Below are positions 4,601 to 57,800 of a DNA stretch of 64,000 nt, in pieces. Made by a program: the position numbers and the translations under genes. Where the stretch lies: positions 14,508,001-14,572,000 of the forward strand of contig NC_043007.1 of the NCBI RefSeq assembly GCF_006345805.1, read 5' to 3'. Source of the DNA: Octopus sinensis. Lineage: Eukaryota. Under the pieces are notes generated by a model that was given only the letters and a program-made list of their open reading frames with translations, did no database searches and was not told where the DNA came from. How positions within the stretch are numbered: the stretch's first letter is position 1; the number at the start of each line of letters is the position of its first letter.

Positions 4601-7600
4601 AGCAACTGTCCTTAATGTGCTCAACGGTGGTAACATAGGAATCACAGTATTGCTAATTGCTCCACATAGGGGACACAAAAATTCTAACTTTTCAATGTTG
4701 TAACTACAGGTATTTCGGTATCTGAAGGGTCTGCGACGTTCTTTTGCTGCGATGGCATCAAAATATCTACAAGAGAAAGGAACAAACAACAGTAATTATA
4801 TCTCTCTTTATAAGGGATTTAGAAAATAATTTACTAAATGGCTTTAAATTGTATCTGAAGCGATAAATTTGGGTTACAGGAAGAAGTGCAGAGTTATGTT
4901 CCTTGCTAAAGGGTACAACACGATGTTATATGATACCTTAATTCACTTTTAATTGGGACCCTTACAAGAGTTGCATTTGGCACGATTTTTGTTTACATTC
5001 GAATAAATTGTTTCTGCTACTGTGAGTTCAATCCTCAACTCAAACTGGCAGAAAAGGTCCCTAATTTTAGAGCAGGCCTAAACATATATGAATATGATTA
5101 AATGGTGCATGTAGAATAGAAACAGTGATGGCATGGTTAAATTTGAACTCTGGATCAAATTGCATAGATTTGTACCTTAACCATGTTCGTGCAAAAATAT
5201 ATATAAATATATTATGGAAACTGTCGAATATTTTAAAAGTGAATCACCTTTGCCAACAGTCAGCATGCATCACATGACCACAAGAGCTGGTGTGAGTTCC
5301 ACAAAAAAGGTCTGAAGACATAAATAAGGGATCTTCATCTTCGTTGTTTATGTGTTTGCCTCTTGATTGAGATAAAACAGAAGACCTGAAATTTAGAAAA
5401 TTACAACAATATAAACAAATATAAAACCAAAATTACAAAACAAAAAAATAACCAACAAAAAAAAAAAACTAAGTATGGTTAAGTATTTTAATATTCCACA
5501 ATTATTTCAAAAATGATTCTCAATTATTTGATATATAAAAAAGAAACAAATTAATTAAATTAATGACAACCTCAGTGATATAGTATGCATTAACCTATGT
5601 GAAAGCCCCAATCTGTTCAAATTTAGTGCCCTTAGATGTTACAAGATCAAATGTACAGTACAGTCTAACATTTAAACCTGGGGTCAGTATTTTCTTGATC
5701 TTTTTTCATAACATCCAAGTATAATGCTACCCTCTGATTTTCGCTGTTGTTTTATATTAGACCTCTTATATTATCATACATGGGTAAATATGGCTGTTAC
5801 TTCATGAGAATTTCTAGATAATGAAGTTATTAACCGAGGGAGATTTTTATTATAAAAATTAGTACAGACGTACACTTACCTTTGTACAAGGGCTGAAAGA
5901 ACCATTACACGTGCATTGTAAGAAATCTCTTGGTCTTCTTGACACAGAATACACACAGCTTTAATGGGGACTACATTGTTGGTGCTAGTTTGTCCACAAC
6001 CCAATGCAACAGGGAAAGGAGTAGATGTAAGTTCACTGGAAGAACAAAAAACACTGTACCCAATAAATTAAAAAAATTAAAACAACAACTGAATGTACAA
6101 AACTACTTAGAGAGATAATAAATCTCTGAGCGAGGTATAAACAGTGGCTGCACAACATCGTGAAGTATATTTGCCACTTAAATGTGGCTAACCCTTAAGG
6201 GTGGATGCATCCACCCTTAAGGGTTAGCCACATTTAAGTGGCAAATATACTTCACGATACTTAGAGAGACTCTTTCACCAATTTCTACCAAATGGACTAA
6301 ATCTATTTTTAGTGTCTGCTTGATTGGTAGTCTTGTAATTCATCAATTAATTATAACATTTTCAAATGGTCTATTCACTGAATTAATAATCTTGAAAGAT
6401 TAATTATTATTAAACATTCGTGTTGTAGAATATCACAAGTTTTACATACTTCCTGTATCTTGTGACTTAACTGCACAAGGAGTTTGATGCAGGGAGCCTG
6501 GTTATGCATCTGAATATGGCTTCTAGTAGAACCATGTATGACTTCGGCATTATTTGGATGCACAAATTCTTACAGGTGCTTATATTTGTCGCCGCACAGG
6601 TGCTTTTACGTGCCACCACGAGTGCTTTTACGTGTCGCCACATGAGCGCTTTTACGTATCACCACATGAGCGCTTTTACGTGTCGTCGCATGGGCACTTT
6701 ACACAACTACAAGGATAAGTGTTAACACTTCTGCTACGGGGTACAGGTCTTCTTGAGTACAGCCAGGTACCCTATCTTGATCCTTTCTCATCTCACTTGA
6801 AAGGTTCAGCTTCCTGAGGTCGTGCTTCAGTACTTCATCCCAGGTCTTTCTGGGTCTCACACTTTGAGAGATTGGCACCTTTTTTTATGGAGCTTTCAGC
6901 ATCCCTAAGTAAATAATTACTACCCCAAAGGTAATAACTAATAAAGTTGCCCTCCAACAGCAGAACACAAAGCATCAAGCTAGCTAATATAACTATACCC
7001 AACACTACACCACCTCCACTATTGTACAAGTGTAAAAATAACAAAACCGAACCTCAAATCCATGTCTGACCAAGCTGAGGTCAGGCCGGATGTGGCCATC
7101 TCACAGAGAGTAGGATTGTCTTGAATAAAGCTTCGTTGCATTGCAGACAGCTGTGACATAATCCGTTGCCGCCGTTTAGCCGCCAACTCGGCCTTCTTCT
7201 TCTTCTCCTGCTCTCTTTTAACATCGTAAGTACTGCTCAGATTGTTTATACTGGAAATACTTTCAAATTCATTCTCCATTTTCCTCACAGCAGAAAATTT
7301 CTGCAAAAAAATTGAATAAACAAAGGATTCAGTTACCTGTCAGTTTACAACTCACAAGTAGTTAGAACAGAAGCATATATTGCAGGTTACAGGTTTTAGT
7401 CAACTGATAAGATCCCAATATTTTATTGGTCTTAAAACAGCGAAGTAGATCTAAGTGAGATTTGATCACAGAACCTAAACAAAATACTACAAGGTATTTT
7501 CATCCAGTATTTTACAGAGTTTATCGTTTGCCTAATGTACAATAAATATTTTGTTCCTCCAGGTTCAAAGCCTTATACAATTTAATCATTCAATTTTAAG

Positions 7601-17500: not shown

Positions 17501-20500
17501 TGTTACAAAACACTCAAAACAACAAAATCACAATTTTGGGTTGTGGAATAAAAGTGATTTATCATCAATGCATATATAGTATTCTAGAGTAGAATGTGCA
17601 GGTGTTATGCAAATAAATACAGCATAGTAGGTAAAAAGTGTTCCTGGGGTGATCATAAAGGAATTTAACATTTGGAGTAAAGTGGTTTGATTAGATTTTA
17701 ATATAATAATAATAATAATAATATAATAATGTATATTATTGTATACAGTGCTCAGGTGTACCACAACTTGTCAAAAGTGCGTGTAAAGCATATGCAGTAA
17801 TGTACAAATGTCTGGAAAGTGAACAGTGTATGAGTCAGATACATGCTTGCGTGTGTATGGAGAGGAGAAAATCAGGTGTAGTGTTGGCGAATCTCAGGAA
17901 GCATGGAAGTTTTGAAGGATGCAGTGCTCCGACAACTAACAACTGATGCCAACAGTTTGTTCCATGCTTCAGCAACTCTTAGTGTGAAAAAATGTTTCTG
18001 AAAGTCATGGGAGCTGTGGTAAACATGTCCACGGGTGTTAGACAGGTGGAGTTTGAAAAGGTACTCAGAGTTATTGTTTGTAAGATGGTTAATAATTTTA
18101 TGGGTGTCTGCCAAGTCAGCTGCCAGACGTCGGAGTTTCAATGTATCCATGCCCAGGGAAGTAAGGCGTTCAGAATATGGCAACATGAAGTAGGTTATAT
18201 CTAGGTCTCAGCAATAAAATAACTAGGATTGAGTATGGCTGTCTGTTGTACAGCAGACCAATTCAATGTATGCCAATATATAAAAAAAAAAACAAGTGTT
18301 AAATCTGATAGTGGTGGTGATATTTCCAATCTCATTAGAAACAGGACTGAGCTTCATAGATGAGACAAGACAGAATTGAGTTACATAGAAAGATACCACA
18401 TGCAGTGGAGGTTACACATGGATGTTATACCAATATTATAGATGATGATGAGGGTGGAATATCCTGGCATGTAAAACTCAATCCAAGCAGCAACTTTATT
18501 GAATACACAGGACAGAACAAAACTTCCCACTTACAGGGAACATTAAGTATTATAATATAATATAATGAAATTATTGTATACAGTGCTCAGGTGCACCACT
18601 AACATCTAGTGGGAACCTAGAATTTCAAACATCACAAAACAGTAGAAACTAAAACAAACACAATCATAACAGATACCTGTGCATGTTCTCTACTAATATG
18701 TGAAATATTTAGTGAGCTAACACAATCAAAATGTCGTAAAACTTCCAAACAACAGTCAGCAACATCTACTCGCATGTGTCAGTGAGTCCTGACCTTTTAA
18801 AGTAGATCAATAAACCTTCACTAATTATCACTAATGGAACTGATAGTCATATCTACAGAAAACAAGTTTAAAGGAACACACAGAAGATGAACTATACCTG
18901 TAACATAACAATATCTTTATCATACATTTCTACACGGCATCTTACATTGTTATAAAAGAAGATCTGAAAGAGAAACAAAAAGAGAAGGTTACATCAAAAG
19001 AGAAAATTAATAACATACAAAATATTTATTTATTGCCCACAAGGGGCTAAACATAGAGGGGACAAACAAGGACAGACAAGGGGATTAAGTCGATTACATC
19101 GACTCCAGTGCGTAACTGGTACTTATTTTATTGACCCTGAAAGGATGAAAGGCAAAGTCGACCTCGGCGGAGTTTGAACTCAGAACGTAACGGCAGATGA
19201 AATACTAAGTATTTCGCCCGGCGTGCTAACGATTCTGCCAGCTCACCACCTTTAACATACAAAATATTATACATAATAAATATCCTTAATTCTTTTACAT
19301 CAACTAATCCATCTTAATACACACCCCACTTAAAACTATATGGAATGTTTCTCATCTTTACAGCACACTTTCATCCTAACTACACATCTTAAAGAAAACA
19401 CATTCATTTAAACTCATCACTTTTCCTTTCAATTAGATACAACCTAACAGTTTCAAATTGAAAATTTCAATAATCTGCATTTGCTATTTATAATTTGATA
19501 GAAAATAAATCATAAAAAGGAATAAAGACTTGAATTGAAATTGTGATTAATGCCACAAAATATAAAAAAATGAAACAGCTATTTCTGAAGAATAAAATAA
19601 CAATCTTACCTGATTAAGAAGGGAGAAACCATTTCTTCTCCACATTCCAGCATAATTTTGAGCTATCATAACTTGAGTTCGCAGTGGCGGTTCTATCAAG
19701 TCAACAGGACTCATTTCAAACTAAAGAATAAAAACCGAACCTTAATTAAATGCTGATTAATATTTGAAATTGATATTTGACAAAATAATGAAAATAAAAA
19801 GGTATTCTTTAGTAATTATAAACCTTTATGTCAGTTGAAACTTACTTTAAGAAGGGTTTCAGGTAACAGATTTCAGTTTGTGATGAAGAAATGTGGATAT
19901 AATAATAATATAATAATAATAATAATAATTGTGTACAGTGCTCAGGTGCACTACAACTCATCTAAAGTGTATATATAATCAGGTGTAGTTTCGGCGGATT
20001 TCGGAAAGCATGAGGGCCTTAAAGGATGCAGTGTCATGGCAGTCAACAACTGACGCAGGCAGTTTATTCCATGCTTCAGCAACTCTGAGCGTGAAAAAAT
20101 GTTTCCGAAAGTCATGGGAGCTGTGTTGTTTTCTGACTTTGTAGGCATGTCCACGTGTGTTAGACACATGGAGATCAAAAAGGTGTTCAGTGTTGTTGTT
20201 GGTGAGGTGGTTGATAACCTTGTGGGTGTTTACCAAGTCCGTCGCCAGATGCCGGAGCTTCAGTGAATCCATGCCCAGGGAAACAAGGCGCTCAGAATAT
20301 GGTAGGTGTCTGATGGAGGGTATGGGTTTGGTTTCACGTCTCTGGACAGATTCCAGGAGGTCAATGTTCTGAGCAAGATAGGGGTTCCAAACTGATGATG
20401 CGAATTCCAAGTGTGGTCGTACCATAGCTGTATACAGTTTTAAATAGATGGCTGGAGAGCGGCTAACAAAAGTCTTGCTGAGTGATGCCAAGACACCCTC

Positions 20501-23500
20501 GGCCTTCTTGACAATATGTTCTCAAATACAGGCATAAATATATCTCAAGAGACAAAGTGTCGTAAGTTTAATTAATGATGATGTGCCGGTGCCAGTGACA
20601 TGTAAAAAGCACCGTCCTAACATGGCAGATGCCAGCGCCACCTGACTGACGTCCGTGACATGTAAAAGCACCAACTAATTGTGGCCGTTTGCCAGCCTCC
20701 TCTGGCCCCTGTGCTGGTGGCACGTAAAAAACACCCACTACACTCATGGAGTGGTTGGCATTAGGAAGGGCATCCAGCTGGATAGAAACACTGCCAGATC
20801 AGACTGGAGCCTGGTGCAGCCTCCTGGCTTCCCAGACCCTGGTCGAACTGTCCAACCCATGCTAGCATGGAAAACGGACATTGAACGATGATGATGATGA
20901 TGATGGTGATGATGTAACAACTTATGAGAGACAACAATGGTAAGGATGACACGATAAAGTAAGCATCTGTTCAATCAAGTCTAACGTGAAACAAAACATA
21001 CCTGTGAAATCATCTCTGGAGAACATATACCAAATTTGTCCATATGTAGATAAAGCCCTGGCAAGAATTAAAAAAAGAGGTAATCAATTCAAAGGAATTA
21101 TGAAAAATATAAGATACAGATTATGATAGCAACAGTGTTTTTAATTTGGTTACAGAGAAAATCCCTTTTCTTCCATGTTTCACTATAAAGAATTTACTCA
21201 TATAATCACCAATCAAGTAATAGCTCTAATATTCATAATTAATTTGTTTTAAACCTCAAGGTCAAATTCCTTCGTACATAAGTTAAAGTGTGTAAAACAA
21301 ATTATATTGTGGAAAAAGCCATTTTAATCATTGAACAACAAACAAAACTGCTGAATTCACATTATATTTTAAATTTATTTCAAGAAGTGTCCAAACTTTC
21401 TTCATACAAATGCAACTTGGGTCAATGGCACAGTTCCTCTGTAACTCAGTTTAAATTTTAAATTAAAAATGAATCTAACAGCTTTGACGTTATTAAATGG
21501 TTAGAATGGTCCTTCCATGATATAACTGATTCACTTGCAAGAAATGCTTTCAGATCAAGTCACTTGCTAGACAAGTACAACTCCAAAAGTGTATAAAAAC
21601 TTTTGGATCTTACATGGTCTACATGTGTGTACACACACACACACACACACACAATCACATTAATGTATGTATATATTCTTTTACTCTTTTACTTGTTTCA
21701 GTCATTTGACTGTGGTCATGTTGGAGCACAGCTTTTAGTCGAGCAAATCGACACCAGGACTTATTCTTTGTAAGCCTAGTGCTTATTCTATCGGTCTCTT
21801 TTGCCGATCCGCTAAGTTACGGGGATGTAAACAGCAGCATCGGTTGTCAAGCGATGTTGGGGCGACAAACACAGACACACAAACATATATATATATAAAC
21901 GACAGGCTTCTTTCAGTTTCCGTCTACCAAATCCACTCACAAGGCTTTGGTCGGCCCAAGGCTATAGTAGAAGACACTTGCCCAAGGTGCCACGCAGTGG
22001 GACTGAACCCAGAACCATGTGGTTCGTAAGCAAGCTATATTAATTTTTGCTCAGATGATATGTAATTGTTTGTCCCAATAAATTCTTGACAGCAATTTTA
22101 CCAAAATTCATTTTGAGGAGAGAATAATTGTTTATTTCATAATTGAGATTAGTTAATTTGCTTTAGGAGTCAAGCATACTGTTCAATGATGTGATAGGAT
22201 ATGATTTAATTCAAACAGTGTATTATCAATGTATGAATATATATATCTAATGACAAATAAAAAAGATATTGACAGATGGAGTAGAAGTTTAGGTGTATTT
22301 CAAGAAGGAAAAAATAGACAAATAAATAAAACCATATTAAGTACCGGCAAAGAGGCGAATAACTGGTAAATGGATACTGACAGGCTGGCTAGCAACATCA
22401 TATTTTATACACTGGGCTACAATTCCTGCAACTGAAATAGATGAAAATATATTATCTTAAAGGGAAATGTTACAAAGAATTTTACACAAATCAGGTACTG
22501 ACTTTACATAAGACAAAATTTTCACATAAATTTCACTTATATGTAGGACAAAGTTTTAATTTATATGTAGGACAAGGTTTTAACTTATATGTAGGACAAG
22601 GTTTTAACTTATATGTAGGACAAGGTTTTAACTTATATGTAGGACAAGGTTTTAACTCATATGTAGGACAAGGTTTTAACTTATATGTAGGACAAGGTTT
22701 TAACTATATGTAGGACAAGGTTTTAACTTATATGTAGGACAAGGTTTTAACTTATATGTAGGACAAGGTTTTAACTTATATGTAGGACAAGGTTTTAACT
22801 TATATGTAGGACAAGGTTTTAACTTATATGTAGGACAAGGTTTTAACTTATATGTAGGACAAGGTTTTAACTTTATGTAGGACAAGGTTTTAACTTATAT
22901 GTAGGACAAGGTTTTAACTTATATGTAGGACAAGGTTTTAACTTATATGTAGGACAAGGTTTTAACTTATATGTAGGACAAGGTTTTAACTTATATGTAG
23001 GACAAGGTTTTAACTTATATGTAGGACAAGGTTTTAACTTATATGTAGAAGAGGGTTTCAATTTACACATAAGACAAGGCTCAAATCTAGAAATAACAAT
23101 GGTTGAATTTACCATCACAATCTTCCATTTTATGGGCATCCAGTTTATCTCTACATTGGTAAAGGGTACAAAGAGTAGATCTAAAACAGTCACTAAAAAC
23201 TGAAGCCTGAAAGTAGACAACAAGAGTTAGTGTGAAAGTATACAGTAGAAGGTGGAATGAAAGTTTACAGCATCACTTTACCTCTATTCAATCGAAATTA
23301 CCAAAATGTTTTCAGAGTTAGTGTTTTATAGATTTGCATTTCCTCAAAACCAAAATATACTAAAGATCAATACCCACATCACGGCCCTGCTTAGCAGTGT
23401 GGCTTACCTGAGTAACACTGGCCCAGCATATATAATTGTAAATATGTACAACAGGTAAATACTGTTTCACAGCAAGTAAGTAAGTAAGTACAATACAAAG

Positions 23501-26500: not shown

Positions 26501-29500
26501 GAGGCTACAGTGAACTTACTGATTAATTCACATAAAATCCACCCCATGCATATTTACGTTTCACATATATTTAAGAATACTTGGATCCTTCTCCACAAAA
26601 TAATAGGGGCAAACTGGCATTGGATAGAGTGTCTTGCAGTTTTTGATCTAGCTCCCTGCACCAGGAGTTCAAACCCCACTGAGGTCAACTGTGTTTCTGA
26701 CCCCTTTTGGGGATCTATAAAGTACCTATTTCTTTACTACCCACAAGGGGCTAAACACAGAGGGGACAAACAAGGACAAATGGATTAATTCGATTACATC
26801 GACCCCAGTGCGTAACTGGTACTTAATTTATCGACCCTGAAAGGATGAAAGGCAAAGTCGACCTTGGCAGAATTTGAACTCAGAACGTAACAGCAGACGA
26901 AATACCTATTTCTTTATTACCCACAAGGGGCTAAACATAGAGGGGACAAACATGGACAGACATAGGTATTAAGTCGATTATATCGATCCCAGTGCTTAAC
27001 TGGTACTTAATTTATCGACCCTGAAAGGATGAAAGGCAAAGTTTTTTTTTTAAAGGCACAGTCGACCTCGGCTCAATTTGAACTCAGAACGTAACGGCAG
27101 ACGAAATACCATTAAGCATTTCGCCCAGCATGCTAACATTTCTGCCAGCTCGCCGCCTTGGGGATCTATAAGGTACCACCTCTTGACTGGGATTGACTCT
27201 CCCACAGGAAGAAAATGACTGATCAGACCTGGAGAAGGATGGGTTCTGCTAAATCCAGAAATGTCCAAAACACATCATGTCATGACAGTGCCCTTATACC
27301 TCTATCAAGAGTTAAGGATCCAATATGATATGGTTTCATTTATTGTCAGACCCCACAACAACTTTTATAAAATTAATTCACAAAAACTTCTGGGTTTTTT
27401 TTTTGCCTTTAATATTTTACAAACTTCTAATTTCCATATTTTGGAAGTTACCAAATCAAGTTAGCTTTATACACAAGAGCTACTTACTTTAGATCATATA
27501 GTATAAACCAAGCTCTCTTAAACGAGTTGCCATTTTCACTTCTTCCAAATGATAATTTTCCTCTCTCTGCAACACAAATGAAAACATTAAAAATTAACTC
27601 AAAATTAAACCATTAACTTTGATAAGTTAATCACAACATAAATATTAATCAAATTCAGTAACATAAACGAATATTAAACACCAATGCAATTAGTTAAAGA
27701 AACAGTATTAAATAAACAAAAGGTTACTGGATACTAGTTTTGAAAAGTGTTTGCAATGAAAGTTTTAAAAATGTACTTCAGGTAAAGGAGGGGTAAACAG
27801 GGTTTTTTTTTCAACCATTCAGTAGCAAAGAGAAATAATCCTATAGATTTGGATTTAAATTGAATAAGCCATTGGATTTAAACTGAATAATCCATTGGAT
27901 CTAAACTGAATAATCCATTGGATCTAAACTGAATAACCCAATGGATCTAAACTGAATAATCCAATTGATCTAAGCTGAATAATCCAATGGATCTAAACTG
28001 AATAATCCATTGGGTCTAAACTGAATAATCCAATGGATCTAAACTGAATAATCCATTGGATTTAAATTAAATAATCCATTGGATTTAAATTAAATAATCC
28101 ACTGGATTTAAATTGAATAATCCACTGGATTTAAACTGAATAATCCATTGGATTTAAATTGAATAATCCATTGGATCTAAACTGAATAATCCTATGGATT
28201 TAAAGAGTTAATGAATAAGAAAGCAAATGTGAAGTGAAAGTAAAACAACTTACTATTCTTTTTACTTTCACATTGTTTTAAGAAGGTCTGCAATATCACT
28301 CCCAACAGGTTGTGTTCTGTGATCAGGAAACGAGCCTATTACAAGGACAAAACAGTAGCATAATAATAATAGTTTTGTAAAGTTGTATAAGAATTAGAAT
28401 TCTTATTTAAACATAAACCTCAAATAACAAAACATAACTTTCAATTAATCACTAATAATTTGATTTCTTTTAGTCTGCTCCAGTCATGCGAGATAAGGTT
28501 CCACTTCACAGTTCAGTGATCACAAATGGTATCCAGCAATAAAAAAAAACTATTTCAATTAATTAATTCCTACAAATTCCACAATTTCTATAAATATCTT
28601 CGTAGAGATATTTACTGTAATAAAATTTAACAGGGAAATGGTATGGGATAAGAGGAGGACAGACTGCTAAATCTTGCTGGGTTTTGACTGTCCATCTTAC
28701 TGAGGAGGTTGATAACCTAAGGAGTTAAATACTGGAGGCTAATTTAATTCACTGTGCATTGTTCCTCTTTCAGCAATCAGTGACATTATGTCAAAGCTAG
28801 TAGTCTATGTAACGTTCTTGAATAAATTGTAACTGATACAAAGGAAATAAAGCCATAGCTATTATATAAACAAGTATTCAAAAAAAGATAATCAAATACA
28901 TTTTTAATTACACCAATTATTTTGTAATAGAGGTTATAATGGATTTCATTTTAAAAGTTCTCAGTTAATGAGGATGCTATTTACCAAAAGATAAACTTCA
29001 TCAAATAATATCTTTGACATTCTCTCATCATCGTTTAATGTCCGCTTTCCATGCTAGCATGGGTTGGACGATTTTGACTGAGGGCTGGCGAACCAGATGG
29101 CTGCACCAGGCTCCAATCTTGATCTGGCAGAGTTTCTACAGCTGGATGCCTTCCTAATGCCAACCACTCCGAGAGTGTAGTGGGTGCTTTTTACGTGCCA
29201 CTGGCACGGGGGCCAGTTAGGCGGTAGTGGCAACGACCTATATCGAATCTTTTTCCACATGCCACCAGCACAGCATATATTCACTTATTTGTATTTATGT
29301 CTGTTTTCCATACTTGCATGGGTTAGATAAATATGCTGTTAAGGCATTGTTTTACAGCCAAATGCTTTCTGTTACTAACCTTTACTTTTTTACAATTAGG
29401 GGATCTCATATTCCACTGGGCTTTGAAGGCACAAATGATTTGTTGATAGAATAACTGACAACAGAGGAGGCACAATGGCCCAGTGGTTAGGGCAGCGGAC

Positions 29501-33000: not shown

Positions 33001-36000
33001 AACCTGGAAACATGTAGTTCGTAAGCCAGCTACTTACCACACAGCTACTCTTATGCCTATATATATATATATCAATAGTAATGTATTGCAAAATGTCTCA
33101 AATTATACAACTACAAGAAACATTTCTCAGATCTTTTAATGATGACATCTGGCAGCATATATTTCTGTGATGGAAATGGAAATTAGTCTAAAAACATAGG
33201 TTTAGGTAATTCCTTTAGATATGGAACACTGCTTAAGAATGAAACAGCAGTAGAAACAACCTACCACCTTAGGAGCTGTGAAAATCTGAAGGGAATCAGA
33301 GATAATGGAAACCGATCGTAAATGATCATCCTTGATAAAGTTCTGCATAAGTTGAGCATAGTGCTAAAATAAGAAACAAGAAAATCAAAAGAAACGGTAA
33401 TAAAAAGGTTATTACATGGCAGTATTTTGCATTTACATAATCAATTACAACATATAACGTAAATAACAGCCATAAATATCAACTTTACTTGGTCATCCTA
33501 ACAATATATAAACAGTTCTATCAAATGAGTTTAACTAAATTTTAAAATAGGTGAAAAGAGTACGTCGTTAGTGATATTTTTTTCATAGTTGAAAACAATT
33601 AGATATAAACACGTTTAGCTAATTCAGTTTTTAACAATCTAAATTTCTTTTTGTGGATAAATGCTTCAGTAGGTTGTACTTTCAATAAAAAAAAAAAGAA
33701 TTTAACTGTAAAGCAATACAACTATTTAAAACTACTGCAGGGGAGTATATCAAATTTGATAAATTTCTGTTTCATGGTTATCAATTGTATTAACAATTAC
33801 AACAATTGCTATTAAATTAGCAAATATTTGCTTTAAAAACGATAAAACAAATAGTTATGCTATTATTATAAAGCAATTATTCATGCAACAATAGCATTTG
33901 GTGGTGCTGCCAAGGACAAACAATTTCTTTAAAAGAATTTCTATTGTTTCAGTTGTTTTGTTACTTATTTGGCTCAGAAAATTATAAGAAAGTATATTTT
34001 TTTTAAAATAAATTTTAAGAAGTTTAACAAAAGCAAAAATGGAAATAAAAAAAAAATTTCTATATATGGAATATTCTCAGAGAAGCTTTGCAATACTGCA
34101 TTTTAATTTTGATTTCATTTCTTTTTTTCTCCAGCATGTAGTTAAGCAAGCGCTAAAGATTGTTTAAAACAAGTAATAATTCAACCATTGAAACTTCCAG
34201 AAAACAATGAAATCTTCATTAAAATATTACTGTAAATCAATGTCACATGTTAATTAATTTAGATAAAGATAAGGCCAATTAGTGATATGCCTTTTTTCCC
34301 ATCATTTTTAAAATGAAATGAAAAAGAACGGGGAGAAATGTTTGTAATAAGCAGAACACACTTCAGCTTTGTACACTTTCATTCAACTAAAAGATTTATG
34401 AAAACTGTCTTGTAATATTTGTTTAACCTGGTGTAATCTTTTTTTTTTTTTAATGGTAGCTAACCATGTAGACCAATCAGCAAACAAGTATTGCAACCAG
34501 TGCAATAGTGTGCAAACTATAAACAATATAGACACCAGGATTAAAACCAAGATACCTGCAATTCCTAAACGATTGCTTTCTCCGCTTAACAGTCAGTTGC
34601 AGCACCAATTTAAAGTTAGTTTTTAAGAAATGCCAGGAAACACTTAAAAGAAAATAAACTATATTGCATTACATAATTTGTTGCATTCAGCTACAAATGA
34701 AACCTGTCTGAACACCAAGTTTATTTGAAAATTAAATATCTAACCTAGAATATCAATCTCATTCTATTTGTCAATATTGCTGAATCCTCCAAGAATCCAA
34801 CCAAGAATTTAAAGGATACCAAAAAGTAACATGTCATTTAAGTTCCTTGATAGGATCAGCACAATCGCTAGATGGACCTAATTATACCTACTTCTATACT
34901 AGTGTGCAGGTTAATTAATTTCATGTAACATCAAGTCTAACTGAGGCACAATAAAGTTGATGTTTGGCTGTGATTTATGCTCAGGTGTTTGAAATTGTTT
35001 ATGCAATTGCACAGTGAAACTGCCATGTGCTTTCCTGATTAACATACCAGACTGGTCAGAGTAAAGATTTGGACAGAAAGGGACACGACGGACACTTCAT
35101 GGTCGTGGTCATCTTGTAAAAAGTCTTCCATCAGTTGAGAATATTTCTGTGGAAATATAGCACAGTAACATTTCATTGACCTAAACACGGCCAACCAGAC
35201 AGTAATTTGAAGAGAACAAAAAGGGGGAAAGAGAATAACTGTATTGATTTGTCAGGAAAGGATATCAAAGTGGAAAAGAAATTGAGGGACACCAATGACT
35301 TGGCTGGAATTTAGAACAGTTTTTATTATTAAAAAATATAAAATAAAAAATAAAATGGAACAGATCAATATACAATTATATATAGTTTAAAATTCAGATC
35401 AGGGAGAAATGAGCCAATATATGTGTGTCTACACCAAATTTAGAGGAATTATATAATACAATATTGTAGTGAACATTAAAAACTAATGCTAGCAATTTTT
35501 AATAGATTTAGAGCTGCCTAATTTTTAATAGACTCTCAGACTTTTGGCAATAGTTTTTTATACACATTCTTGTTCTGTCTATTGTTAAAAAATACTGTAT
35601 TCTGGTACAAAATAATGAAGTTAGTAGTTTATTACTGGTAGAGTTGATAAACTAGAAATTAATTAAAAGCAACAGAAATTAATTTTAAAATGTGATTGGG
35701 GAAATGTTCCTTCTTCAAGATTTTCTCAGTATTTATATCTTTTACGACAGACTCATTCTATGTGATGCTCAGGTTTTTGCTATGAATGTTCTGTTATACA
35801 ACTTCAGCACAGCATCACATTCACTTAACTTGATTCACCAACTGAGACACTAACTCCTTAGTGTATAAACCAGCCATATCTGGCCCAGATATTCTACATG
35901 TTTTATATTCAAACTGGCCAGGTCCAGCCTCTCACACCTAACCTACAGTGACATTCTAACGATAAACAATCACATCATTGAAACCTCAAAGCTATAAGAT

Positions 36001-39800: not shown

Positions 39801-42800
39801 CTGGGGAGAGTCATTTTCTTTTTGTGCCTTATAATTTAACACACTCACCGGTAAAATTTTAGGAAAATAAAGATGAAAAATAAGTGGAAATTTTACCAGT
39901 GAGTGTGTTACATAAGGCACTGAAAGAAAATTATTCTCCCCAGACACAACAGAATATGCTTCAACACACAAACTCATATAAAGAATCTTGCAAACCAAAT
40001 CCAAAAACGAAATATTGATGAAAGGTATTAAGTGGGAAGTTTGTATCACAGAACAAAGGTTTCTCAAGTGGACTGGTAGCAAAAGGGTTAAAAACAGCAT
40101 TTAAAAAATTCCTTTTTGTTGGTTGTTTTATGAAGGTAGAAGTGTAAATTCAAATTACTGAACTAAACAGAATTGCAGAATAAATTTACTTTGCAAAAAT
40201 TGCAAGGGGTAAATAAATAAGTAAATAAAAAATGGTTGGGAACTCCTGCTCTACAGATTTAGAGAATTATATATATATAAAAAAAAAAGTGTTTTGATGT
40301 CAGAGAATGAAGAATTTCAACAGTCAACTCGAAGTTTCACATGGTTCTTAAACTGTACAATAAAAATATGAAACTTTTTCTATTTAAAAAAAAAAAAATG
40401 TAACATATTGCAATAAACTTATTTATAGCCCTATTATAATAATACTTTTAAAAAATTACAATGGAATAGTACTGGATTTGGCAATTCTGGGATTCAGATT
40501 AACACCAGAAGAAAAATTACAACTTTTTAAGAAAAGTTGGTGATTGATAATCATTAAAAAAAACTGGAATAATATTCAATTATAATTTTAGGTACTGTAT
40601 GCTCTAATCTAATAATAATTAGATATTATCACATGTTTAATTCTATAATCAGGTACCATAAACTATAACCTAGAAACTGCTGCTATAAAATAAAACCAAT
40701 TCATTGCAAACAGTTCATTCGTTTACTTGGTAATGTGTTATATACCATGTAGTTATTTTATATTTTGATCAACAGGCTTTCAGTTAAAGTCACTGTCTCA
40801 TGAGATTTTGCTATATAAATTCCAACAAGTTTTACATTCTTATGTAATAATAGATGTGTAAACCTTGACACAGCAATAAAAACAGCAATAAAAAGCTATG
40901 TTCTGAACAGGGTCAGTAGAGTATAAGAGACTAAAATTAAAATTTAGGAGTAAGATTTATGGAACACTAAACTATCATTTGGATAACATTGTCTATAAAT
41001 AGAGATAATTAAATGACAGCAATAGATCATAAAAAAACAATGTTGATTCTTAAACTGGGATAGTGGATAATTTACTGAGGACACTGTGGTAATAAATCTA
41101 GCATTTTTATTATTCGTGATTAGAAAACAAACAAAAAGCAAAATTATTAAAAAAAATTTTCCTATTGATTAAAAAAAAAAATGTTCTTACCTCAGTAAAC
41201 ATCACTCCAAACTGACGTTTACATTCCTGATCCCTCAGAACCCTTCAAAGAAAATAAACCAAATAATGGTTTGAGCACTGAACGTTCAAGCAGTGGTTAT
41301 ATAAAACACAAAACATCAGTAAAAGTACATCATTAAGAATATGACACCATGTTTTTAATATTGCAGTCTATCAACTCATTAAATAGTCACAAAGTTCGTT
41401 AAATGATGTATTTATCATCATCATCATTGTTCGACCGTGGTCGAGACAATGGAATTTACCATGCTACGCCAGACTTCATGGTCCATCATGGCATTACGGA
41501 GGTCCTGTTGCTGGATGCCTGTATCCCTGGAGATTACATCAGGGTAGGAGAGTGTGCGCCCTCTGGTATTGTGAGTAGATGGCTTCCAGAGGAGAAGAGT
41601 AGAAATTGCCTCGTTTTCAGCTCTACAACAATGTCCAGCAAACTGGACTCTTCTACCTTTCACAAGAGATGACACAGGTGGTAGTTTCCCATATAATTGT
41701 ATTTTTTTTTTTTTTGCATGAGAGGCGGTTGGATGGAACCTACACTTGCCTCCTTATGAGAGCTCAAAATCTCTCGTGGAAGCGTCATCCAACCAAAGTG
41801 CAAATATGTGGGAAATATGTATTTATAATGTGATTTGATAGTCAAAAATTACTGATACCAAGTGTGTATAAACATATACACACACTGAATAAGTTGCTAA
41901 AATTTTAAATGTAAATATCAGAAAAAATATGAGAATCACTTTGAGACATATACAAAAGTGGGTGCTACTTTGGTAAGCAATCTACATAGCCAACATGGTC
42001 TACAAGAGTCAAATTCTACTTTAGGATGTGATCTACAAGTTTCATTTATTCATTATGACTTAAATAAAACATTCTTACATATTTATACATTTATTTAAAA
42101 AAATTAAAATGAAGCAGATTTGAAACAAGTTTACTAATTTTATGGGTGAATCGAATAAACGAACGAATCAAATGAATGGGCAAATCAAACAAACATCAGC
42201 TAGAAAAGTAAAAAGTAGATAATTAAAATTTTAATACATTTAGTATTTAAAAGAAATTAGAATAAAGCAAATTTAAACAAGTTTGCTAATTTTATTGTTA
42301 ATACATTTATTATTAAAGTTTATGATTTAATACATCTTTATATATAAAATTCAAGTTGTGTGTGTGAGACTGTCTCCTCCGCTTTAGATTCCTAACTACT
42401 CTTACATTTTACGGTGCAGTTTAACCAAAAGCGGGCATCTTATAGTCGTCATTCATATTGAGCCCTTCTGGGTATTAGCGCACGTCTATGATGAGTCTAT
42501 GATTTAAAAAAAAATTTACCATCATTTTTCCGCATTTTTAATGATTTTTGCTTGGGTTATATAAGGGAAGTAACTCTCTAAAAATGCTTATATAGTTGTT
42601 TCCCTTACAAACCTGAGCAACGCCAGGTGATACGGCTAGTTTATTAAAAAGAAATTAGAAAGAAGCAAATCTGACACAAGTTTACTAATTTTATCAGTGA
42701 ATCAAACAAATGTCAGGTGTTTTCCTTGTTCTTACTAAGTATAACTTTTCTCGTTGTAGATCACAATCTAAAGTGTATTTCACATACCAAAGCAGTTTCA

Positions 42801-54833: not shown

Positions 54834-57800
54834 AAAGCAGAGAGAGAGAGGGAGAAAAGCAAGAGAGAGAGAGAGAGAGAGGGAGAAAAGCAGAGAGAGA
54901 GGGAGAAAAGCAGAGAGAGAGAGAGGGAGAAAAGCAGAGAGAGGGAGGGAGAAAAGCAGAGAGGAAAGAGGAGTAAAGAGAGGAGGAGGAGGAGGAGAAA
55001 GCACAAGGAGAGGGGGGAAGGAAGAGTAAATACCTTTACTTCGTCTAAAGAAGTTCCTTTGCCATGAGTTTCACAGTGAGGACCAGACTTCCAAGCTTCA
55101 ACATCACCACAATCACAGTAACCTCCGCCACTGGAAATACTCATCTGGGGAATAAAGAGTTGGAGAAACAAATTAAAATTTTAAAACTGACACAAAAAAG
55201 GCAAGAAGCCTCCCACCCCCACCCAGAAGGGTCTATTAAAACAATTGTTTATAAATATTAAGTGTGAAATTAATAGAACAGACATAAGCAGGAGATTATG
55301 TCATCTATGCGTCCACCAAGCCTCGCCAGAAAAGTCAAAATTGGGTGCCATAGGTTTTACAGAGAATTTCCTAAGTCAATGACAAAACCTCCATGTGGCC
55401 ATGTGATCTGCATTTGTTCATAGTCTGGGTCTGCTGATTCAGGACTGACCCAAGGCCAAAGACAAGTACCGATAACTTGCCAACAAATGCTGTATTTAGT
55501 TACACAAGTTGAGTAACATGTTATGTATGACTTATGGCATTTAAATATCGTGACCAGAAATGTTATAAGCTTTCACAGTCAAATATGAAAAAGAAACAGG
55601 TATATGTTTCATATCTGACTATGAAAGACAATGCAGAAAGGACCTAAAAAAACCCTAAGAATTTTGTCAGCCAAGGAGTTTTGTTATGGTTTACACCAAA
55701 TAGCAACTAATTTTTCACAGTAAGAAAGAATAAAAGGCGATATGTAGGTCCAACTAGCATTAAAAAAATGACAATAACATTGATTATACTGATAATATTA
55801 ATCTCTTTTCACTTCATGCAAAACAATTTTGTAATGAAGGGGATAAGTGAATTAAGCCAAGTATATTGTTGGTATTTCTTTGAATGGCATGTAAAAAGCG
55901 CCATCCAAACGTGGCTGATGCCAGCACCGCCTTGACTGGCTTCCATGCCGGTGCCACATAAAAAGCACCCACTACACTCACGGAGTGGTTAACGTTAGGA
56001 AGGGCATCCAGCTGTAGAAACACTGCCAGATCAGACTGGAGCCTGGTGCAGCCTCCTGGCTTCCCAGACCCCGGTTGAACCGTCCAACCCATGCTAGCAT
56101 GGAAAACGGATGTTAACTCTTTAGTGTTCAGATTATTCTATCAAACATAATGCCTATTGATTCCCATTGATTTGAATTAATCATGCATTATCTCAAATCT
56201 TCAAGATCTTGATGGTGTAATTACTTAATGTAGAATAACATTGTAGGGTAGGTGTGAGAGCCTGGATCTGGTCAGTTTGAACATAAAACAGATTAACTAT
56301 TTTGGCCAGATATGGCCGGTTTAAATACTAAAGGGTTAAACGATGATGATGAAAGCAATGTTAATATTAAGAAAATATGAAATCAGAGCAAAAAAAAAAA
56401 CACTATCATAGGGAATGTTAGCCAGTGCTTTATTTCTGCCAGTTCACCAAGCATCTAATCTTACAAAGCCTATAAAATCAAATCCAGAATAGCACTGGTG
56501 CGTATTTTACCAACCTCATTGAGATCAGCAATATTGCAACTTAGAACACAGAAAGAGAAGTCAATACAGAAATGGATAATTGCAATAGAAATCAGTTTAA
56601 CAGGATTAAGATGAAACAGAATAAATTTTATTTTGTTCCTCTTTTCATGTTCAGTACCATTTATATTCTTTTATTGGTATCAACAACAGGATGAGATATC
56701 TCTTGCAAAAAATTTAGACAATTATATTGGCCCGAATATCTAATTTGGTACGTATATTAGCAATCTCTGTTCATCAAATAATCAAGTCCATTAATTGGTG
56801 TAGAAGGATACGACATAATACTTTCGTTGAATGCACCAACACACACATGACGGGATGGGTTAACTGCAGTTTCCACTAACCAAATTCTTCCACCAAACAT
56901 TAGTTCAATCCAAGGTTATGGTACAAGACACTTCCTTAACCCTTTAGCTTTCTCTGTTATATGTAACACTTGTTTATTCATATTGGTTTTAATCAATCTT
57001 GCATTATTTAGGCGTAGGAGTGGCTGTGTGGTAAGTAGCTTCCTTACGAACCACATGGTTCCGGGTTCAGTCCCGCTGCATGGCACTTTGGGCAAGTATC
57101 TTCTGCTATAGCCTCGGGTCAACCAAAGCCTTGTGAGTGGATTTGGTAGATGGAAACTGAAAGAAGCCCGTCGTATATATGTATATGTTTGTGTGTCTAT
57201 GTTTGACCCCCCAACATCGCTTGACAACCGATGCTGGTGTGTTTACATCCCCGTAACATAGCAGTTCAGCAAAAGAGACTGATAGAATAAGTACTAGGCT
57301 TACAAAGAATAAGTCCTGGGGTCAATTTGCTCGACTAAAGGCAGTGCTCCAGCATGGCCACAGTCAAATGACTGAAACAAGTAAAAGAGTATCTCATATC
57401 TCTTAGGTTTCAATAATGTGATTGTTTTAAGAAATGACATTTATCAGGTATGGCCAAATATGGCCAGTTTGGATATAAAATGGGTAGAATATTTGGGCTG
57501 AACATGGGTGGTCTAGATTTTAAAGGGTCAAGTTGTGATACAGTGATATTAAATTCTGAATTGTGGTTGTGAACACACTTCTTGATCATTCATATAGCCA
57601 TAAAGTAACAAAATCAAATTCACAGTTTAAAAGCAACTGTGATGTCTAAGAACATGTTATGTTGAATATACGCAAAAATCAAATAAGAGAACTGAAGTGG
57701 AGGAGCATTTTAAAGAGACAGTGCAAAATAAGAATTGAAACCCAAACTGGTCAAAAAAGGGGGAAACTCACCCGATAGCGGTGTTTCTTATGAACACTTT

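Follow-up and report, generated by a model that had tools for sequence, protein, structure and literature searches.

How two neighbouring exons that each preserve the reading frame come to be used one at a time is the question raised by the UBR2 gene of Octopus sinensis. The window analysed here, 64,000 nt of contig NC_043007.1 (positions 14,508,001 to 14,572,000), carries most of this UBR1/2-family E3 ligase (N-degron) gene on its minus strand. The gene was identified from PDB sequences and named proteins: exon A, the first of the pair, resembles human UBR2 residues 396-426 (E 1.9e-5, search of PDB sequences), and a 36-exon model passing through exon B agrees with P0001, Octopus sinensis UBR2 isoform X2, with 0 mismatches and at 35 of 35 tested junctions, exon B itself being 100 % identical to P0001. 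Four single-exon queries of Pfam returned 0 families. Locally the exons follow one another on the minus strand in the order U, A, B, D (Table 1). An initial annotation made from the sequence had described A and B as frame-preserving exons of 99 nt each, which we could confirm; both are in phase 0 with GT/AG ends. They share 16 of 33 residues and are separated by an intron of 1684 nt, and as homologous neighbours of like length and phase they have the properties of tandem duplicates. A search of the octopus genome with exon B returned B, A and one weak unrelated match.

Table 1. Positions within the window of the exons, intron arms and related elements at the UBR2 exon pair
Feature	Positions	Strand	Basis
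Constitutive exon U, upstream	41191..41242	-	Gene model, contig joints
Putative rival pairing site ahead of exon A (resembling ATE1 R1), not supported	35150..35187	-	Local fold only
Exon A of UBR2, first tandem copy, 99 nt, phase 0	35048..35146	-	Human UBR2 match, protein junctions, U-A and A-D contig joints
A donor and 19-nt linker outside the core stem	35029..35047	-	Sequence, fold
5′ stem arm, from +20 to +98 relative to the A donor	34950..35028	-	Sequence complementarity, fold
Loop enclosed by the stem, 1460 nt	33490..34949	-	No repeat family found
3′ stem arm, from -126 to -51 relative to the B acceptor	33414..33489	-	Sequence complementarity, fold
50 nt outside the stem: branch point candidates, pyrimidine tract, AG of exon B	33364..33413	-	Ad hoc scoring
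Exon B of UBR2, second tandem copy, 99 nt, phase 0	33265..33363	-	P0001 match, U-B contig joint
Constitutive exon D, downstream	28254..28335	-	Gene model, contig joints

Proteins and transcripts indicate that the two exons are alternatives. Among 26 proteins looked up in clusters, 14 carry A only, 6 carry B only, 1 carries both and 5 do not extend over this segment, which gives one exon or the other in 20 of the 21 informative sequences, as expected of mutually exclusive exons. Exon B is found among named proteins of Octopus and Argonauta, as well as in a Sepia model and a further assembly, and the land snail Bradybaena has one A-like and one B-like isoform. Only one protein, the Sepia gene model P0015, contains both exons, arranged in tandem; it is either a prediction artefact or a case of real double inclusion. 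We also utilized two sequencing runs (X10 and X24) that were taken as RNA by guess, while a third, X8, was set aside as too near in sequence and too patchy. Contig loose ends matching U and D gave the U-A and A-D joints in both runs and the U-B joint in one. No A-B joint was found in the contigs of these two probable RNA runs, which is weak evidence because contigs lose rare isoforms. Exon A appears to be the major form, with a contig depth of 44.6 against 6.55 for B in X10 and A alone in X24, depth being a poor measure of abundance. Taken together these data support A and B as paralogous, in-frame exons that are used alternatively.

Several other features of the gene were noted in the course of this work. 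Named Octopus isoforms differ too by deletions of 6 residues and 2 residues at exon edges (window 6035-6053 and 55034-55040), likely reflecting alternative splice sites. Nine nucleotides at +9 to +17 after the A donor (35031-35039) are an exact complement of the start of exon D (28322-28330), a length reached by 2 of 1296 comparable pairs; this could be a bridge joining A to D, or chance. Introns of the gene also contain tandem repeats, one of a 23-nt unit at 28000-28204 and one of a short unit, visible as repeating translations, at about 22600-23100. On the minus strand, an open frame of 180 aa (window 19979-20521) appears to resemble the end of a LINE-type reverse transcriptase.

The A-B intron carries complementary arms close to both of its ends. 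The initial annotation had seen the outer half of this complementarity, and its observations were reproduced: 35019-35028 and 33414-33423 are perfect reverse complements (10 of 10), 34993-35011 matches 33428-33446 at 16 of 19 positions (only 2-8 of 19 at offsets of 1-3), and 19 nt separate the A donor from one arm and 50 nt the other arm from the B acceptor. The complementarity runs further inward, however, to 34950 and 33489, and the enclosed loop is 1460 nt in place of the approximately 1.55 kb first proposed. Four main helices cover 61 positions, of which 53 are Watson-Crick pairs, 3 G-U, 2 A-C and 3 other. The minimum-energy fold has about 60 pairs, with a duplex energy of -60.3 kcal/mol; the opposite strand is equally stable (-62.2), giving no strand signal. 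When the whole of 33230-35230 was folded, the 12 core pairs sampled were all predicted to form with probabilities of 0.99-1.0, leaving both splice sites outside the core helices. Rfam returned nothing at gathering score and two weak matches below it.

To gauge these values we used the remaining introns of the gene and shuffled sequences. The duplex energy of the flanks, -39.3, ranks 1 of 1296 donor by acceptor flank pairs of the gene (mean -15.0), and with wider windows the helix score of 59.5 again ranks 1 of 1296, about 12 standard deviations above the mean (next 33, mean 18.1, sd 3.5). None of 1000 shuffled arm pairs reached the score of the stem. Nor did any of 150 shuffles of the complete intron, the control that the initial annotation had called for; the highest of these scored 45.5 against 60. 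The exact 10-nt match on its own is common, as 18 of the 1296 flank pairs reach 10 or more. Inverted repeats are likewise common in this gene: 6 of 32 other scored introns contain internal ones that score higher, their ends being unpaired in the end-window test, and what is unusual here is the placement at both ends of the intron. Strong internal inverted repeats with scores of 138-183 occur in the introns at 45459-44141, 27487-25503, 11316-8636 and 4586-3299; these are probably repeat elements and possible sources of double-stranded RNA. The stem of the A-B intron is statistically strong, well placed and a real feature lying between genuine alternative exons, and its function is inferred.

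Published systems, cited here from the accessible parts of the respective papers, offer several precedents for such a function. Steric exclusion is expected where a donor lies less than 50 nt from the next branch point (PMC5740500, PMC7969005), and is represented by exons 4a/4b of OGDH and by 57 human clusters with a donor to branch point distance under 50 nt (PMC7969005, PMC5740500). The octopus pair is similar in being made of tandem homologous exons with a donor that would lie too near the next branch point. Those exons, however, are close together in linear sequence, whereas the 1684-nt octopus intron exceeds the linear limit and the distance in it would be short only after folding. The pairing would leave 19 + 50 = 69 bases free. 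Using our own ad hoc scoring we identified candidate branch point adenines outside the stem at 33409, 33401 and 33385, corresponding to folded donor to branch point distances of 24, 32 or 48 nt for the three, all under the 50-nt steric criterion, although this and the other distance thresholds come from yeast and vertebrates and may not hold in molluscs. We count in favour of steric exclusion both these distances and the similarity of the 69-nt remainder to the real introns of 71 and 73 nt at the two vertebrate-type loci L016 and L020 described below.

We propose, with the chances in our estimation evenly balanced, that a constitutive stem re-creates steric exclusion between the A donor and the B branch point. 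A stem of about 60 pairs, forming on most transcripts, would bring the A donor too near the B branch point to leave room for a spliceosome joining A to B, while either site could still be spliced to one farther away, giving U-B or A-D. Whichever of these pairings were the first to commit would then remove the other exon in the lariat. The 3′ arm is transcribed just before the B branch point, and the lock might close ahead of recognition of the B acceptor. That pairing blocks A-B splicing was the central claim of the initial annotation; the excess of the stem over chance, its prediction in full context and the 69-nt remainder all agree with it, while the branch point of B is represented by candidate positions only. 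The accompanying claim that a mechanism of this kind is needed was too strong, since proteins can enforce exclusivity too. Points against steric exclusion include the A+B arrangement of P0015, the lack of a significant stem at the L006 locus and the non-significant conservation of the arms (see below), the branch point candidates inside the 3′ arm, and the geometry of one candidate outside it.

This last point concerns the 33385 candidate (-22), the best by our ad hoc scoring, for which a linker of 47 nt and a clearance of 28 nt match the definition of a zipper stem. Intron-spanning stems usually promote splicing, as do the zippers of yeast and the stem of NISCH intron 18 (PMC12350175, PMC12519161), and the octopus stem resembles these in tying the 5′ end of the intron to the region before the branch point with the middle looped out. 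The arms might thus act as a zipper or bridge helping A-to-B splicing, or as a binding platform for proteins that recognize double-strand RNA, ADAR among them, with no role in exclusion; P0015 and the two A-C mismatches in the stem would fit such a role. Zippers have linkers of 42-85 nt and mostly promote splicing, whereas the octopus linker is 23, 31 or 47 nt depending on the candidate and is proposed to block it. In a model of the yeast A complex a stem is tolerated only if the linker measures 42 nt or more and 20 nt separate the stem from the branch point (PMC12350175), limits that the candidates at -38 and -46 fail, so that these two fall outside the zipper definition. The absence of an A-B joint from the two probable RNA runs, the single exon carried by 20 of 21 informative proteins, and the lack of any T>C change at the 8 sites listed in the X10 contig, which covers the 5′ arm and not the 3′ arm, speak against a role without exclusion, the least probable of the readings considered and a very improbable one. 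The 5′ arm could alternatively dock with the acceptor region of either A or B, hiding one of the two. ATE1, which works in the same Arg/N-degron pathway as UBR1/2, is the model for such a switch. In human ATE1 the element R3 pairs with either R1 or R4 and its loss leads to double inclusion of exons 7a/7b (PMC7797038); an element in the intervening intron of octopus UBR2 is likewise complementary to sequence that precedes the second exon. A local fold places exon A between 35187-35160 and the 5′ arm with pairing probabilities up to 0.96, exon A comes first, by a narrow lead, among 35 exons compared for pairing between their flanks (24.3 against 23.0), and local pairing could form first, transiently, during transcription. 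This competing pairing is strong locally and was rejected by shuffling and the full fold: 98 of 1000 shuffles equal it, it ranks 189 of 1296, its -29.5 compares with -60.3 kcal/mol for the stem, and its probability in the full fold is 0.0. No competitor of comparable stability was found ahead of the first exon. Whereas R1 and R4 resemble one another, the sequences preceding A and B show no clear similarity, and where ATE1 has two competing helices over its 3′ splice sites the octopus intron has one dominant 60-pair stem ending 50 nt short of the acceptor. We regard a switch of the ATE1 type as scarcely more probable than the zipper, and highly unlikely. Long-range intronic pairing at duplicated mutually exclusive exons is also shared with Dscam1, 14-3-3zeta, Mhc, MRP1 and srp (PMC6071210, PMC10790352). 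The docking site of those systems lies in a flanking intron and exons are looped out, whereas no octopus exon is looped; between exons U and D neither arm pairs better with any other sequence than with its counterpart, and scans from U to D revealed no second partner for either arm above 31.5 (against 59.5), and hence no docking site with a set of selectors.

A different possibility is that the stem represses B by masking, the branch point of B lying in the 3′ arm or requiring an adjoining single-stranded stretch for U2 anchoring. B would then be chosen when the stem is open or remodelled, and opening would go with skipping of A. The AG-free zone of B is 119 nt, the longest among 36 acceptors (median 39), and ends near the inner end of the arm, which falls almost entirely within it; four more good branch point candidates lie there inside the 3′ arm (-78, -97, -110 and -116), and their use would favour masking over steric exclusion. 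The apparent predominance of A, as judged by contig depth, is in keeping with repression of B, as is an outer extension in which +8 to +19 pairs with the pyrimidine tract of B with a probability of 0.5-0.66 when the intron ends are folded alone. In the full fold, however, this probability drops to 0.03 and the outer helix was discarded; another intron of the gene has an AG-free zone of 107 nt, and a stem of -60 kcal/mol would require an opener, none having been identified. Masking is in our judgement unlikely, though it is the strongest competitor of steric exclusion. The arms could also be a neutral relic, the degraded terminal inverted repeats that an old insertion of 1.6 kb left in a once short intron, with proteins enforcing exclusivity. 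Cutting out the 1615 nt between the outer ends of the arms would restore a vertebrate-like intron of 69 nt, the energy is strand-symmetric, conservation in the X19 comparison below is not significant, and other introns of the gene contain strong internal inverted repeats. Used as DNA queries, the intron and the 5′ arm nevertheless retrieved no other copies, in a search insensitive enough to have missed the partner arm, and two exact patterns from the arm blocks match this locus only in 2.7 Gb. A whole-genome run at 80 % likeness returned one long orthologous contig, the others among the pieces listed being 18-51 nt without any pile-up. The outer flanks have no direct repeat, so that neither of the marks of a DNA transposon or MITE, dispersed copies and a target-site duplication, was seen. 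A neutral relic is accordingly improbable, more so than masking, although the arms may derive from a very old or low-copy insertion family, an origin that is compatible with a steric stem as well.

We looked for conservation of the arms in X19, a run labelled as another species, in which one contig spans 33100-35564 with 104 differing letters. Among the 40 of 106 differences listed, none of which lies beyond 34282 or in the 5′ arm, substitutions number 0 in 33364-33403, 4 in 33445-33459, 0 in 33460-33489 and 26 in 412 nt of the loop; a second contig overlaps 33404-33444, where differences may be hidden. For this one close relative and the differences listed, the inner two helices thus show 0 substitutions in 30 nt against a background of 6.3 % (P 0.14), and the cleanly readable arm 4 in 45. 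One of the four arm substitutions falls in a loop, two at helix ends, and one converts an A-C mismatch to A-U. The energy with all four is unchanged (-60.4), as it is in 345 of 3000 random draws. The X19 pattern is in the direction expected of a conserved stem, but is not significant.

A scan of metagenome contigs with a degenerate pattern identified 22 loci, 3 of which have two copies of the exon (L016, L020 and L006). L016 (5036-5304) and L020 (909-1179) have twin 99-nt exons separated by introns of 71 nt and 73 nt respectively, with a branch-point-like motif at +33 in L016, and are probably of vertebrate type, judging by their likeness to human UBR2. L006 (2220-2876), a distant locus, has both exons around a 459-nt intron and groups with the mollusc copies. 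Of the first 15 nt of its intron, 12 agree by eye with the octopus intron, while no homology to the octopus arms was detectable and no significant stem was found in it (z -0.17; 40 of 300; 21 of 119), the intron folding into two adjacent hairpins from +44 to -51; this does not support a mollusc-wide stem. In a tree of 33 columns the mollusc A copies group together (91/91), as do the vertebrate copies (80/90), although an arrangement that places mollusc A beside the second vertebrate copy could not be rejected (p-AU 0.21). The tree leans towards separate duplications in molluscs and vertebrates, and the pairs may have had one origin or two.

The human exon pair is already known and has been catalogued: sheet S2 of the supplement of PMC9741552 lists a tandem exon substitution in UBR2 with the age ‘Gnathostomata’, in a row that does not name the exon. 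The octopus pair belongs to the same gene family and, by alignment of the vertebrate-type loci, to the same 33-residue segment. It differs in that the vertebrate-type introns are 71-73 nt, and the mollusc pair, present in octopus, argonaut, cuttlefish and land snail, falls outside the Gnathostomata age. If a steric stem operates, folding in octopus would do the job that a real 71-73-nt intron likely does in vertebrate UBR2. We suggest tentatively, putting the chance somewhat below even, that cephalopods have a short intron made by folding, in which 1.7 kb is reduced to an unspliceable 69 nt, where vertebrates have a physically short one at the same protein segment, and that the stem perhaps began as the inverted ends of an insertion, tolerated since it folded upon itself.

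A literature search, which left most subscription papers outside its reach, yielded no account of the mollusc exon pair, nor of a stem creating steric exclusion. A study of Dscam exon 17 reportedly concerns steric hindrance with RNA structure, to judge by its title, and may overlap with the present proposal. In the accessible part of a human survey, 484 clusters were assigned to ‘other mechanisms’, and only introns shorter than 500 nt were examined for steric hindrance (PMC5740500). If true, steric exclusion arising from structure would be the reverse of the splice-promoting zipper stem, and would constitute a class missed by distance-based surveys because long introns are skipped. Should a stem be able to set the steric limit in a long intron, some of the unexplained clusters would gain a searchable rule, complementary arms at both ends of the intron with a short remainder. 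For the gene family itself, the findings point to a switch between two forms of an N-degron ligase scaffold, conserved in molluscs and vertebrates and possibly evolved twice.
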